A stretch of 64,000 bases of DNA, taken from a virus. Shown piece by piece: positions 4,182-25,886 of this stretch (position 1 is the first letter of the stretch; every line of letters starts with the position of its first letter). The notes beneath the pieces are model-generated. The model did not search any database. It worked only from the letters and a program-made list of their open reading frames with translations, and was not told the DNA's origin. The position numbers and the translations under genes were made by a program. The DNA is taken from IMG/VR virus record IMGVR_UViG_3300019458_000032, positions 1 to 64,000 of that record; one strand, 5' to 3'.

Positions 4182-4415
4182 ATGAAACGTATTATAATTT
4201 ATACTGGATTAATTTTATTAGGATATGTCTTAAATATTACCACTAATGAAGTGTGTAATTATGAATGGGAATATTATTATCATAAATCATTAACTGAAAA
4301 TATTCCACCACCTCTTTCTAATAGATTTAAATGGATTAATGAAAATAGAGCATTAAAAGTTTGTCCAATTCTACAATATACACCTGATTTGTATAAAAAA
4401 TTTGAATTCGAATAA
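4182..4415 (+). CDS. small membrane-anchored protein
   Basis: Start moved to ATG 4182; N-terminal hydrophobic stretch. Confidence 0.5.
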   Translation: MKRIIIYTGLILLGYVLNITTNEVCNYEWEYYYHKSLTENIPPPLSNRFKWINENRALKVCPILQYTPDLYKKFEFE

Positions 4416-4419
4416 GAGT

Positions 4420-4515
4420 TTGTATAGCGGTTACGAGCACTAACACTTTCTAGAAGTGAGTGGATTAGCGTGACTATAAGGGTATGAGAGTGAGGGTAGC
4501 GACTCACCTATACAA
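4420..4515 (+). ncRNA. structured RNA domain A, tRNA-shaped with no anticodon arm
   Basis: Terminal stem TTGTATAG/CTATACAA; D-like stem GGTTACG/CGTGACT enclosing CACTT-TCTAG-AAGTG hairpin; T-like arm GTGAG-GGTAGCGA-CTCAC stacked on the terminal stem. Confidence 0.6.
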
Positions 4516-4527
4516 TTTATTTTAAGT

Positions 4528-4721
4528 TTGTGTGAGCGGCGTGGTAGATATAGGTATGAAAGGTTTGGGTTTAATCGAGACCACTTGTAACAACCTGGTA
4601 ACACGTGTGGTTAGCCTATTGGAGACACGCAGATGAGATGAGTCGTCAAGTACGTAACCCTTTAATGGGCCAGTATCATCACGTTTAAACTTGAAACAGA
4701 AGTAGTGATCTGTCCACACAA
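4528..4721 (+). ncRNA. structured RNA domain B, tRNA-shaped with large insertions
   Basis: Terminal stem TTGTGTG/CACACAA; D-like stem GCGTG(4539)/CACGC(4626); T-like arm ACAGA-AGTAGTGA-TCTGT next to the terminal stem. Confidence 0.6.
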
Positions 4722-4781
4722 TTATTTATTATGAGTATTTATTTATGTTACATAATTCTTTTAAAAATGAATAATTTATAT

Positions 4782-4843
4782 ATAGGTGCTCATAGCAGGC
4801 CTGAAGTTCAAAGGTGGAGTTAAATGACCACGAGTCAGCCTAT
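4782..4843 (+). ncRNA. structured RNA domain C (small multibranch)
   Basis: ATAGG/CCTAT closing stem, short internal hairpins (TGCT/AGCA, CCT/AGG, GTGG/CCAC), followed by a T tract. Confidence 0.4.
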
Positions 4844-4852
4844 TTTTTTAAT

Positions 4853-4986
4853 TTGTTATAGAGTACTGGAGTTAGTGGCCATGATCGTATACATGGTGTC
4901 AATGACTTAATGTAGGGCTAAGACTTGAGAGGTTGGAATAACACAGTCTAAGATGTGCCGACTTTGTGCCAAAGGCTCTATAACAA
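4853..4986 (+). ncRNA. structured RNA domain D
   Basis: Perfect 11-bp closing stem TTGTTATAGAG/CTCTATAACAA; internal CCATG/CATGG and AGACT/AGTCT helices. Confidence 0.55.
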
Positions 4987-5014
4987 TTTTTTAACAAAAT
5001 AAGGAGACATTTAA

Positions 5015-5320
5015 ATGAATTATGATGATTATAAAGAAGCTAAAGAAAGAGTTGCTAAACATAGAGATATTACTTATGATCTTTCTTGTGAAGAAATTGC
5101 TGCTATTGATATCGCTCAACAAATAGGAGGATATGAATGGGCAATCGAAGATGCTCAAAGTAACCTAAAACGTTTATACAAAGCTGCAAAGAAACTACCA
5201 AAACCAAAGAAACAATTGGTTGATGATATAGATCCTCAAATAATTAAAGAAGCTAAATATAAGTTTAGAGGTAAAAGAGATTTACAAAGAAAACTTTACA
5301 TGTATGATGAAATTGAATGA
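5015..5320 (+). CDS. hypothetical protein
   Basis: Strong AAGGAG RBS, 101 aa ORF. Confidence 0.65.
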   Translation: MNYDDYKEAKERVAKHRDITYDLSCEEIAAIDIAQQIGGYEWAIEDAQSNLKRLYKAAKKLPKPKKQLVDDIDPQIIKEAKYKFRGKRDLQRKLYMYDEIE

Positions 5321-5554: not shown

Positions 5555-6265
5555 ATGAAAATAATTGCATTGAGTGATACCCATAATCGACATGACGAAT
5601 TAACTATTCCGGAATGTGATCTTTTAATTCATTCGGGAGATTGGACCAACCGGGGTAAAATGGATGAAGTTGAAATTTTTGCCAAATGGTTAAATAAACA
5701 AACTCAATGTAAAAACATTATTGTAATTCCAGGAAATCACGAACTTTATTTTGAGAAATATTTACCTGAATCACGAAACTGGTTTACTGATAATTGCCCA
5801 AAAGCTCATTTGTTAATCGATGAATTAATTGAAATTGATGGTATAAAAATTTACGGATCTCCGGTTACTCCTTTCTTTTGCGATTGGGCCTGGAATAGAG
5901 CAAGTGGAATCGTTAAAGGATATGTAGCTGGTTTCAAGGAATTTTATCCTAAACCAATTAAACCACACTGGGATGCTATACCCAAAGATATAAACATTCT
6001 TATTACTCATGGACCCCCCTATGGTATATTAGACCAAACTACACATATAAATGGTGAATTAAGATCAGATCATTTAGGATGTGAAGAACTTATATCTAGA
6101 ATTAAAGAATTAGATAACTTAGATTTACATATTTTCGGACATATACATTCACCAGGGGGTAATCAAAGACATCAAGATGGAGTTTCATTTTACAATGCCG
6201 CAATTTGTGATGAACATTATATACCTATAAATCCAATAACTATAATTGATTATAGTTTAGAATGA
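5555..6265 (+). CDS. metallophosphoesterase (MPPED/calcineurin-like)
   Basis: SDTH, HSGD, PGNHE, THGPP, FGHIH motifs. Confidence 0.92.
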   Translation: MKIIALSDTHNRHDELTIPECDLLIHSGDWTNRGKMDEVEIFAKWLNKQTQCKNIIVIPGNHELYFEKYLPESRNWFTDNCPKAHLLIDELIEIDGIKIYGSPVTPFFCDWAWNRASGIVKGYVAGFKEFYPKPIKPHWDAIPKDINILITHGPPYGILDQTTHINGELRSDHLGCEELISRIKELDNLDLHIFGHIHSPGGNQRHQDGVSFYNAAICDEHYIPINPITIIDYSLE

Positions 6266-13830: not shown

Positions 13831-13834
13831 TATA

Positions 13835-13950
13835 AAGCTAGCCTTTAGGAACAACTGCCTGGCGGAGTGTAGCTAACATCGGGAGGTGACGAACCCGAGG
13901 ACCAGGAAAGCTTACTTAATTACATTTAGAACAAGGCGGTTCTAGGTAAG
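13835..13950 (+). ncRNA. GC-rich structured intergenic RNA element
   Basis: Nested helices AAGCT/AGCTT, CCTGG/CCAGG, TCGGG/CCCGA; second hairpin TAGAAC/GTTCTA. Confidence 0.45.
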
Positions 13951-13962
13951 GGATAACGGCTC

Positions 13963-13990
13963 AGGGATGAGAACTTGTCCCTATTTTTTT
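13963..13990 (+). terminator. intrinsic terminator
   Basis: AGGGATGAG..CTTGTCCCT stem followed by ATTTTTTT. Confidence 0.65.
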
Positions 13991-24202: not shown

Positions 24203-24822
24203 AAGTAATAATCCCAGCATGCGGCTACGGAATCAGGATGGGGATGCAACCCAATGAATCTAAAGAGATGCTCATTGAAGAAATGCCTCATCCTGCTATG
24301 AAAAATTACAATCAACCAATTATTCAATATTCATTGGATATTTGTGAGCAATATAATTTAGATCCTATTGTAATAACTAGACCTCACAAGGAAGATCTTA
24401 TAGAATATCTTCATAAACACAGAATTGAAGTTATGATTCATCAACCCAAAGACGGTGAAGAGTGGGCATTAACAGTATTAGCTTCACAAAGACATTGGGA
24501 AGAGAATAATTTATTATTACTACCCGATACAAGATTTCATAGCACGGGTATTGTTTTAGATATTGAAGAGGGTTTAAAATTGGGCAATAATGCAGTATTT
24601 GCATTACATAACGTAGATGATCCTCATAACTGGGGAATTATTAAAGATTATAATTTAATTGAAAAACCCAAAACCCTTAGTGTTGGAAGATATTGGGCTT
24701 GGGGGTTAATTGCGTTTAAAGATTATTATGGAGAAGAACTATTTTCTTCAAAACAATTAACTTTAAAAGATGTTGGATTTTGTTATTTAGATCACTTTAG
24801 AGATATTACGAGAACTAAATGA
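24199..24822 (+). CDS. sugar-1-phosphate nucleotidyltransferase-like protein
   Basis: IIPACGYGIRM...SKEML, LLLPDT, WG.I, IEKP, WGLIAF. Confidence 0.8.
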   Translation: MKVIIPACGYGIRMGMQPNESKEMLIEEMPHPAMKNYNQPIIQYSLDICEQYNLDPIVITRPHKEDLIEYLHKHRIEVMIHQPKDGEEWALTVLASQRHWEENNLLLLPDTRFHSTGIVLDIEEGLKLGNNAVFALHNVDDPHNWGIIKDYNLIEKPKTLSVGRYWAWGLIAFKDYYGEELFSSKQLTLKDVGFCYLDHFRDITRTK

Positions 24823-25886
24823 AAGATAACTTTGGATTTTATTATTACGATATTTCCAAATTTGAAGAACTTGTAGAACAGAAGTATATAAGAAAATCTG
24901 AAACAGATGATCTTGTTTTATACACATATACAGAACAAACAACTTATGAAAAATATTGGAATGACTATACAAGAGCCGCCAGAGGTTTAATTCTAGATAA
25001 ACACACAGGAGAACTTGTTGCTAAACCTTTTCCTAAGTTTTTTAATTTAGGCGAAATGCCTGAAGTATATTTAACAAATCTTCCTTCTCTTGAATATACT
25101 GTATCCGAAAAAGTTGATGGTTCATTGGGTATTATTTATTTCTATAACAATAAATGGAATGTTGCAACAAAAGGTTCATTTGCTAGTGAACAATCAATTA
25201 AAGCTGAAGAAATATTAAAAAAATATGATTTAACTAAAATTAACACTAAAACAACTCTACTAGTTGAAATTATTTATCCTGAAAATAGAGTAGTTGTAGA
25301 TTATAACAACGAAGAAAAACTTGTTTTAATCGGTGCTTATAATAATGTAACCGGTAACGAATTTATAGATTTAGATGTCTATTCAAATTTAACTGGTTTG
25401 CCATTAAGAAAAACATATTCATACACAATCAATGAAATGATAAAGTTACAAAAAACTATTCCCAAGAATCAAGAGGGATTTGTTATTCGTTTCTCATCTG
25501 GATTAAGAATTAAAATTAAAGGCGAAGAGTATTTAAAAATACACAAAATTATATCTAATTTATCACCATTAAGTTTCTGGGAAGTTATGGAAAATGGAAA
25601 AGTTCCTATTAACTATATTCAACAAGTACCAGAAGAATTTCTTGACCAATTTGAACCAATTGTAATTGAGTTAGAAAAACGATATATTCAAATTAAAAAA
25701 GAAGTTGAAGAAGAATTTCACACTTTGCCAAATAAAGAATCTAGGAAAGAAGTAGGATTGCATCTTAAAAAATTTACATATAATCATGAATCCGCAATGT
25801 TTCCTATGTTACTTGATAAAAAAGATGTTGTAGACAAATATATAATGAAACAAATTAGACCAAAGGGTAATAGCTTTAATTTATAA
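24819..25886 (+). CDS. T4 Rnl1-like RNA ligase
   Basis: ARGLI, KPFPKFFN.GE, EKVDGSLG, ATKGSF, EII, EGFV, KIK..EY. Confidence 0.9.
   Translation: MKDNFGFYYYDISKFEELVEQKYIRKSETDDLVLYTYTEQTTYEKYWNDYTRAARGLILDKHTGELVAKPFPKFFNLGEMPEVYLTNLPSLEYTVSEKVDGSLGIIYFYNNKWNVATKGSFASEQSIKAEEILKKYDLTKINTKTTLLVEIIYPENRVVVDYNNEEKLVLIGAYNNVTGNEFIDLDVYSNLTGLPLRKTYSYTINEMIKLQKTIPKNQEGFVIRFSSGLRIKIKGEEYLKIHKIISNLSPLSFWEVMENGKVPINYIQQVPEEFLDQFEPIVIELEKRYIQIKKEVEEEFHTLPNKESRKEVGLHLKKFTYNHESAMFPMLLDKKDVVDKYIMKQIRPKGNSFNL

Follow-up and report, generated by a model that had tools for sequence, protein, structure and literature searches.

Phage RNAs that resemble transfer RNA (tRNA) and have no anticodon have been known since the species 1 and species 2 RNAs of T4. 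In the tRNA-like domain of transfer-messenger RNA (tmRNA), and likewise in engineered tRNA scaffolds, the acceptor helix is stacked on the T arm, the D region is reduced and a large insert occupies the site of the anticodon arm. The bacterial Y RNA YrlA is modular and contains a tRNA-mimicking part; its acceptor-like stem is internal, and the Ro-binding stem is built from its paired ends. For T4, rnaC and rnaD (species 1 and species 2) are listed among 'RNAs of yet unknown functions' (PMC9697503). Plant mitochondrial t-elements are tRNA-like folds located between genes, without a working anticodon arm, which direct cleavage by RNase P and RNase Z (PMC1920247). The DNA analysed here, called the window, comprises the initial 64 kb (64,000 nucleotides) of a 76.6-kb record of an uncultured phage with 33% G+C (IMG/VR record IMGVR_UViG_3300019458_000032). 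Two neighbouring domains on its + strand, A (4420-4515) and B (4528-4721), are tandem, diverged members of a family of phage small RNAs. On the searches reported below, this family appears to be uncatalogued in Rfam 15, widespread and mobile in phages and prophages.

The two stem-loop domains had been noticed in a preliminary description made from the letters of the window, and their coordinates, sequences, stems and loops were confirmed on the + strand. The bare octamer RGTAGYGA of their loops is not enriched in the window (6 occurrences for 3.7 expected). A combined descriptor was then defined, in which an 8-nt loop resembling RGUAGYGA is carried on a stem of 5 bp, this hairpin abuts a closing helix of 8 bp, and CGG follows the 5' strand of that helix. 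Nine long related contigs, obtained through an alignment-based polB search, were taken whole and scanned with this descriptor. The matches with a perfect loop core were limited to A, B and a single element in each of two related phages (G001 and G006); three looser matches were also retrieved, and shuffled genomes gave about two matches in all. On their own genome alone, A and B are not distinguishable from chance. The G001 and G006 elements occupy GC-rich gaps, on the coding strand, and share the motif AGCGGYGUG with B; G006 also contains GGAGACACGCA.

A covariance model, R1, was built from 24 short-form members of the family, with A, B and the G001 and G006 elements left out of the seed. It was run with filters off on positions 4300-5100 (801 nt), so that the E-values are rough. 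Domain A was recovered at 22.2 bits (E 6e-6) and domain B at 17.7 bits (E 1e-4), in both cases with the full model, with the exact ends 4420-4515 and 4528-4721, and on the + strand only. Scaled to 64 kb, the E-values become ~5e-4 for A and ~0.009 for B. The preliminary description had suggested a model built from A and B themselves; the one used came from 24 other phages, and it finds them both.

The family has a common plan. The closing helix (P1) has 8 bp of any sequence except for its AG/CU end. One C links it to a D-like hairpin of 5-6 bp (P2; GGCGUG-GAAAGCAGA-CACGC, with the helix rule GGYGUG/CACRC). The position of the anticodon arm is taken by a cargo that measures 26-177 nt and folds into one to three hairpins; a single A separates it from a T-like hairpin (P5; GCCGG-AGUAGCGC-CCGGC). 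The latter has 5 bp and the loop RGU(A/C)GCGN, and it lies directly against the 3' strand of P1. In the long form, which is that of B, an extra helix is inserted in the P2 loop (GAAAG-CUGNNN...NNNCUG-GAGA; long-form motif GAAAGCUG...CUGGAGA). The tRNA elbow plan put forward for A and B, with an acceptor-like helix, a D-like hairpin and a T-like hairpin against the 3' strand, turned out to be conserved in a large family. The RGUAGYGA loop that the two domains share is a hallmark of this family within the wider consensus RGU(A/C)GCGN, and homologues lacking the loop did not occur.

Pairing over the 24 seeds reached 96.5% of cells, against 77% in shuffles and 31-39% in slid controls. Double-change cells in the seeds numbered 78 versus 21, and the observed number was reached by 0 of 500 shuffles. 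In an independent set of 14 sequences, RNAalifold reported compensatory changes in 14 of 20 pairs. The idea that identical loops on different stems amount to internal covariation was thus upheld by the seed covariation and by RNAalifold, at the level of the family. Covariation was also observed between the two loops: position 6 of the P2 loop and position 5 of the P5 loop are C:G in 62 cases, U:A in 3, U:G in 2 and C:A in 0. Member L305 carries the tRNA versions of both loops (GAUGGAUGA, with GG, and the canonical T loop UUCGAUU), and member L346a combines a GGG-type D-like loop (GAUGGGAGA) with the T-like loop UAUCAAGC. Taken together, the loop-loop covariation and these variants support a contact between the D-like and T-like loops as at the tRNA elbow, which would make the molecule a tRNA-shaped RNA without being a tRNA. 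This evidence for the pair is at the level of the family and not of A and B themselves. P1 could be stacked on P5, giving 13 bp versus 12 in tRNA. Reading of the RNA from the + strand agrees with its G-U pairs and with its orientation, which is that of the flanking genes.

Domain A is a 96-nt miniature member: P1 is followed by the C linker, by a P2-like helix into which an arm is inserted, by 14 nt of linker and by P5. Its P1 is a perfect 8-bp inverted repeat in which UUGUAUAG (4420-4427) pairs with CUAUACAA (4508-4515), with AG/CU at the end as in the family; the closing motif UUGUAUAG-C-GG follows the family rule (8-bp helix ending in AG/CU, then C, then GG). A single base, C4428, stands between P1 and the D-like arm (4429-4475). 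In this arm GGUUACG (4429-4435) pairs with CGUGACU (4469-4475) in the minimum free energy (MFE) and centroid folds, and this helix differs from the family P2 and does not enclose GAAAGCAGA. Within the arm are GAUUAG, as an internal loop, and a further hairpin (CACU/AGUG, CACUUU-CUA-GAAGUG); GAUUAGC recurs in the P2 loop of member L254. The register of the arm relative to the family P2 is our inference. The 14-nt linker that had been said to replace the anticodon arm is present at 4476-4489, and there is no cargo hairpin. The T-like hairpin P5 (4490-4507) is formed by GUGAG (4490-4494), the loop GGUAGCGA (4495-4502) and CUCAC (4503-4507), and abuts the 3' strand of P1. Its loop is also present in other family members. 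The MFE fold of A reproduces the helices of the covariance model, and its single-sequence folding score is weak (z = -1.5).

Domain B is a 194-nt member of the long form. Its P1 is made of UUGUGUG(A)G (4528-4536) paired with CCACACAA (4714-4721), and A4535 is bulged; L124 and L127 also have a bulged A. The sequence UUGUGUG(A)G-C-GG conforms to the family closing rule. The P5 hairpin of B had been placed one nucleotide away from the acceptor strand; instead, the extra base is the bulged A4535, C4714 pairs with G4536, and P5 abuts P1. The D-like arm (4539-4630) is closed by P2, with GCGUG (4539-4543) pairing with CACGC (4626-4630). It contains an inserted helix, P3, in which AUAGG (4550-4554) pairs with CCUAU (4615-4619) below a variable apex, and the conserved GGAGA (4621-4625). 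The P2 and P3 columns of this arm covary across the family. B has both GGCGUG/CACGC and GGAGA; at its 5' junction it reads GUAGAU instead of GAAAGCUG, a feature shared with L127. The cargo region (4631-4695) stands in the anticodon-arm position and is variable in the family; its local fold in B is not robust. Large insertions in the D loop and at the anticodon position, as first described for B, correspond to P3 and to this cargo. P5 (4696-4713) consists of ACAGA (4696-4700), the loop AGUAGUGA (4701-4708), which is one C-to-U change away from RGU(A/C)GCGN, and UCUGU (4709-4713). The words AGCGGCGUG and GGAGACACGCA, at the family spacing, are common to B and 12 other phages. The single-sequence folding score is weak here too (z = -0.9).

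The cloverleaf rule of tRNA (5-bp anticodon stem, 7-nt loop, T loop UUCRANY, GG in the D loop) does not describe the two domains, which have no anticodon arm, and the family loop RGUAGYGA is not a T loop by sequence. The Rfam tRNA model RF00005 gave no match at E<=10 in positions 4300-5100. The nearest known RNAs are T4 rnaC and rnaD, small stable phage RNAs that, like the family, have no anticodon arm; they are encoded beside tRNA genes. In rnaC (L290:1909-2047, - strand), a T arm CCGGG-UUCGAAU-CCCGG stands next to the 3' end, and GAGUAGCGU, a word that overlaps the AGUAGCG loop of the family, occurs twice; both features are a hint only. In contrast to the family, rnaC has a canonical T loop, and neither T4 RNA has the AGCGG-GGCGUG-GAAAGCAGA-CACGC module. 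Membership of rnaC and rnaD in the family was rejected: with filters off, the best R1 match in the T4 tRNA region was 7.2 bits (E 0.15), on a short hairpin alone.

The family is like the tmRNA domain and the tRNA scaffolds in its acceptor/T stack, its reduced D region and the position of its insert, but the CCA, the G-U alanine identity pair and the tag reading frame of tmRNA are all missing and P1 is fully variable. Charging of the RNA is unlikely, since there is no CCA, no G-U alanine pair and no fixed P1. The preliminary description was right that no CCA is encoded after A or B. The ARAGORN tmRNA search (window and whole genome) and Rfam (window) gave no tmRNA. With t-elements (mascRNA-type signals) the family shares a non-canonical, intergenic tRNA-like fold without a working anticodon arm. 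However, t-elements keep the T-arm motif GGTTCRANYCC, whereas the family has its own pair of loops, a cargo and, in several members, a promoter and a terminator. The likeness to YrlA lies in modularity, in the tRNA-mimicking part and in the paired ends; the difference is that here the ends form the acceptor-like helix, and neither a Ro/TROVE gene (in this phage and G001) nor an Rfam Y RNA match was found. A cobalamin riboswitch was considered on the basis of a GCCACUG word and of a B12-dependent reductase neighbour, and rejected for lack of an Rfam match. A presumed likeness to helix 24 of 16S ribosomal RNA or to 5S ribosomal RNA was considered and dropped.

More than 150 IMG/VR contigs, and phage isolates as well, yielded members of the family. 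In IMG/VR, exact patterns matched 14 loci with the long form, 55 with the P5 hairpin and 103 with the P2 hairpin; the complete architecture is present in 13 of the 14 long-form loci, and R1 finds 72 members among the fetched loci. The non-tRNA motifs and their compensatory changes are kept in more than 100 phages. An earlier IMG/VR pattern, combining the loop with the local 3' tail, gave 48 matches, of which none had the fold. Among cultured phages, BLAST revealed the element in Pseudomonas phage Persinger, 18 nt after the integrase stop and with a strong terminator downstream, and in Pseudomonas phage PotUPM1, near cI and beneath a 'hypothetical protein' call (L289:2599-2931). From the sequence read there, this call is probably a false gene. 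The match was limited to the 5' motif in Orimi01, Orisa01-03 and Ochrobactrum phage POI1126, which probably carry the element as well. In the GenBank records of Orimi01 and Orisa01-03, the matched stretch is annotated within a 'hypothetical protein'.

Searches outside phages were largely negative. The long-form pattern had 99 matches in 185,000 bacterial and archaeal genomes, a chance number located in GC-rich DNA, and these were rejected as none had the fold. The exact short-form 22-mer was absent from 401 sampled Gammaproteobacteria genomes and the element from 5,426 complete E. coli genomes. A plasmid search returned one phage-plasmid-like Brucella record. The negatives from E. coli, the Gammaproteobacteria and the 185,000 genomes indicate that this is an RNA of phages and occasional prophages and not a housekeeping one. 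Rfam 15 gave no match at the gathering score and no meaningful one at E<=10 for the window, its relatives and canonical members; literature searches with the motif strings returned primer and adapter sequences only. No description of the family was found in Rfam 15 or in the literature searched; the thousands of unnamed candidates in PMC10690425 may include it.

Several members are bordered by transcription signals. In G006, a promoter TTGACT-17-TATAAT is placed so that the start falls at P1. -10 boxes lie 6-8 nt upstream of P1 in L133, L131, L125 and L130, and a U-tract follows P1 directly in L136, L133, L131 and G006. With a -10 box just before P1 and a U-tract after it, the AT-rich members look like primary transcripts, for which RNase P would not be needed. 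Other members are found inside tRNA clusters (L124, L126 and L346), and tandem copies occur in L131 as well as here. Beside the L124 member, in a 176-kb contig, two adjacent tRNAs with the CUA anticodon, which reads amber, and a tRNA-Ser(UGA) were observed (L124:2641-2796, - strand); this hints at a stop-codon-recoded phage.

The genes around the element vary. No conserved partner gene was found in 56 loci, and at most 3 of the 56 share a given neighbour. The L128 element stands between a class II ribonucleotide reductase gene, 6 nt away on its upstream side, and thyX, which follows at 31 nt; elsewhere the element is near dUTPase and helicase genes, beside integrase or cI, or within tRNA arrays. 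In one lineage with the same P1, the cargo appears to be kept or compensatorily changed and the flanks are unrelated; in L296, of the same lineage, an unrelated cargo has been swapped in. Only G001 and G006 of the nine polB relatives carry the element, which fits a cassette that comes and goes. The element moves as a cassette between unrelated neighbourhoods. A role as attP or integration site was considered for the integrase neighbour in Persinger and rejected, as no such link exists in most carriers.

Our preferred reading, a tentative one, is that the conserved part is a tRNA-like chassis that could stabilise and present a swappable cargo; conserved host tRNA machinery would recognise the core and the cargo would provide the specific activity. 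The RNA would be made as a discrete, stable molecule. Its chassis would give a compact tRNA-like fold with protected ends. A cargo that is variable and structured takes the place of the anticodon arm and would have a phage-specific activity, and the D-like loop offers a second insertion point, used by B and A. In this AT-rich lytic phage, both copies lie in what would be an early arm and may act during host take-over. A wider version of this reading is somewhat doubtful: it supposes a natural 'tRNA-scaffold' display system, in which phages of many lineages exchange an elbow-forming chassis read by universal host tRNA machinery and plug effector RNAs (aptamers, antisense seeds, defence decoys) into the anticodon and D-loop positions. 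The T4 species 1 RNA would then be a distant functional cousin, through its AGUAGCG word.

Several observations count against the preferred reading. The 8-nt T-like loop (RGUAGCGN) and the D-like loop GAAAGCAGA have none of the tRNA signature bases, CCA is encoded in no inspected member, and the loop-loop covariation represents only ~3-4 independent events. A has no canonical P2 loop; B is missing the GC of the D-like loop and carries a U in place of C in its P5 loop; the elbows of both may on this account be degenerate. A and B are also weak members, missed by the default Infernal filters, with an E-value of ~0.009 for B over the whole window. Finally, the cargo could be tolerated filler if the chassis alone matters.

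The main rival explanation, which we regard as doubtful, treats the cargo as such a filler: the tRNA-shaped core would be a decoy or sponge that titrates a conserved host protein able to read the elbow or the minihelix of acceptor and T arm; candidates are tRNA-directed defence toxins, nucleotidyltransferases, RNase P and the CCA-adding enzyme. The preliminary description had suggested tRNA decoys, for instance against host defences that target tRNA, or processing handles for enzymes such as RNase P. It fits with a conserved host target that both motifs are nearly identical over phages of very different G+C and lifestyle, with no linked phage partner gene. T4 Rnl1 and Pnkp act against PrrC, and a phage exposed to tRNA-cleaving defences may carry genes of this kind as its equipment. 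The present phage has a T4 Rnl1-type RNA ligase and two calcineurin-type phosphoesterases, and in G001 a phosphoesterase gene is directly upstream of the element; the tandem copies here and in L131 would raise dosage. However, the RNA-repair genes are unlinked to the element in other phages. There is no conserved mimic of an anticodon stem-loop, which makes anticodon nucleases unlikely targets; the loop sequences are not tRNA-like and CCA is not encoded. The cargo is long, structured and kept within a lineage, which is unexpected for filler. The paired 5' and 3' ends, the conserved loops and the variable module also resemble the modular plan of Y RNAs, and the element might be the RNA subunit of a ribonucleoprotein (Y-RNA/Ro-like or other) with its protein partner encoded elsewhere in the phage or in the host. 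This is quite unlikely: the TROVE/Ro domain (PF05731) is absent from this phage and from G001, its 14-bit score in G006 is below the cut-off, and no neighbouring gene is conserved in the 56 loci.

An action in cis on the transcript is unlikely, although some gene arrangements suit it. The element would then be a tRNA-like 'punctuation' cut by RNase P/Z, or a promoter-proximal terminator or attenuator of the next gene. The order promoter, element, U-tract, ribosome binding site and gene is found in G006, L133 and L136, and the ATG of G001 comes 20 nt past P1. The close spacing in L128, between the ribonucleotide reductase gene (6 nt) and thyX (31 nt), and in Persinger, 18 nt past the integrase stop, would also agree with it, and plant mitochondrial t-elements provide an example of tRNA-like folds that, although they have no anticodon, guide cutting by RNase P/Z (PMC1920247). 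Yet the downstream genes are unrelated among loci, unlike those of a riboswitch or a dedicated leader, and punctuation requires neither a conserved loop sequence nor a cargo. The element is also found in tRNA clusters and in tandem, and some phages provide it with a promoter and terminator of its own. The possibility that A and B are decayed tRNA genes or functionless chance hairpins is very improbable. The absence of tRNA from this phage according to ARAGORN and the weak single-sequence z-scores would be compatible with it, and the tRNA-type loops of some members make a descent from tRNA genes plausible. But non-tRNA motifs and compensatory changes are kept in >100 phages and an independent model recovers A and B with exact ends. 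Decay from ordinary tRNAs, which the preliminary description had named as the outcome that would count against its proposal, is contradicted by both results.

The family comprises over 150 natural variants with a clear consensus and a testable tertiary pair, and its cultured Pseudomonas carriers, Persinger and PotUPM1, make genetics and biochemistry possible. If a chassis carrying a cargo is the right explanation, it would be a general route by which phages obtain stable designer RNAs and a ready scaffold for RNA expression; if the RNA is a decoy, it would be a new RNA-based counter-defence. In either case, the family deserves an Rfam entry, which would clear many 'hypothetical protein' calls such as those of PotUPM1 and the Orimi/Orisa phages.

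The two domains lie in a non-coding gap of 600 nt, from the stop at 4415 to the ATG at 5015, with zero + strand open reading frames (ORFs) of at least 40 codons. Its G+C content is 40-44%, against ~27% in the surroundings. The phage is isolated, its polB being only 28% identical to those of the closest cultured phages. BLASTN with the gap sequence gave no match in INPHARED phages, and a DNA search with the gap gave none in nine related phage genomes. The downstream ORF (5015-5320) is an orphan and offered no route to homologues; the phosphoesterase-gene route led to short or non-syntenic contigs only. ARAGORN found 0 tRNA or tmRNA genes in the 64-kb window and in the whole genome. The RNA ligase of the T4 Rnl1 type and the two calcineurin-type metallophosphoesterases are encoded in the window at 24819-25886, 469-1173 and 5555-6265. 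In a tRNA-less phage these three genes could be an RNA-repair set; no kinase was identified.

Two other folded, GC-enriched elements follow B in the gap, both on the + strand. The third element (4780-4845) has AUAGG...CCUAU followed by U7. The fourth (4852-4987) is closed by an 11-bp helix, UUGUUAUAGAG/CUCUAUAACAA, which forms an inverted repeat, and is followed by U6. Both fall outside the family: R1 gave no match above noise for the third and 0.4 bits, on the closing helix alone, for the fourth. No relatives of either element were found. Elsewhere in the window, a non-coding element of 49% G+C (13831-13990) stands just upstream of the primase-helicase operon and has a terminator (AGGGA...UCCCU + U8) at its end. 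Beyond the window, positions 72038-72854 of this phage are an 817-nt non-coding stretch of 39% G+C with CT-rich direct repeats and repeated TTTGACAGTG boxes, which could be an origin or packaging region.

Two non-coding regions were also observed in the relative G007 (IMGVR_UViG_3300042691_014730). A type-III hammerhead core was seen by eye at L106:3786-3837 (- strand), in a promoter-led 400-nt non-coding leader. Its parts are GGUGUC / CCUAGG-AUUUAA-CCUAGG / CUGAUGAG / UCUU-AAUA-AGA / CGAAAC / ACC, and it was not reported by the Rfam gathering scan. On the minus strand of G007, at ~67270-66915 (L109), a promoter (TTGACA-17-TATAGT) leads into a non-coding RNA of ~300 nt, after which come the terminator GGUGGCGAGCUAUCGC-U9 and a ribosome binding site. 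This RNA has a hairpin AACG-GUAGUAA-CGUU, and the same terminator motif occurs again at ~71690.

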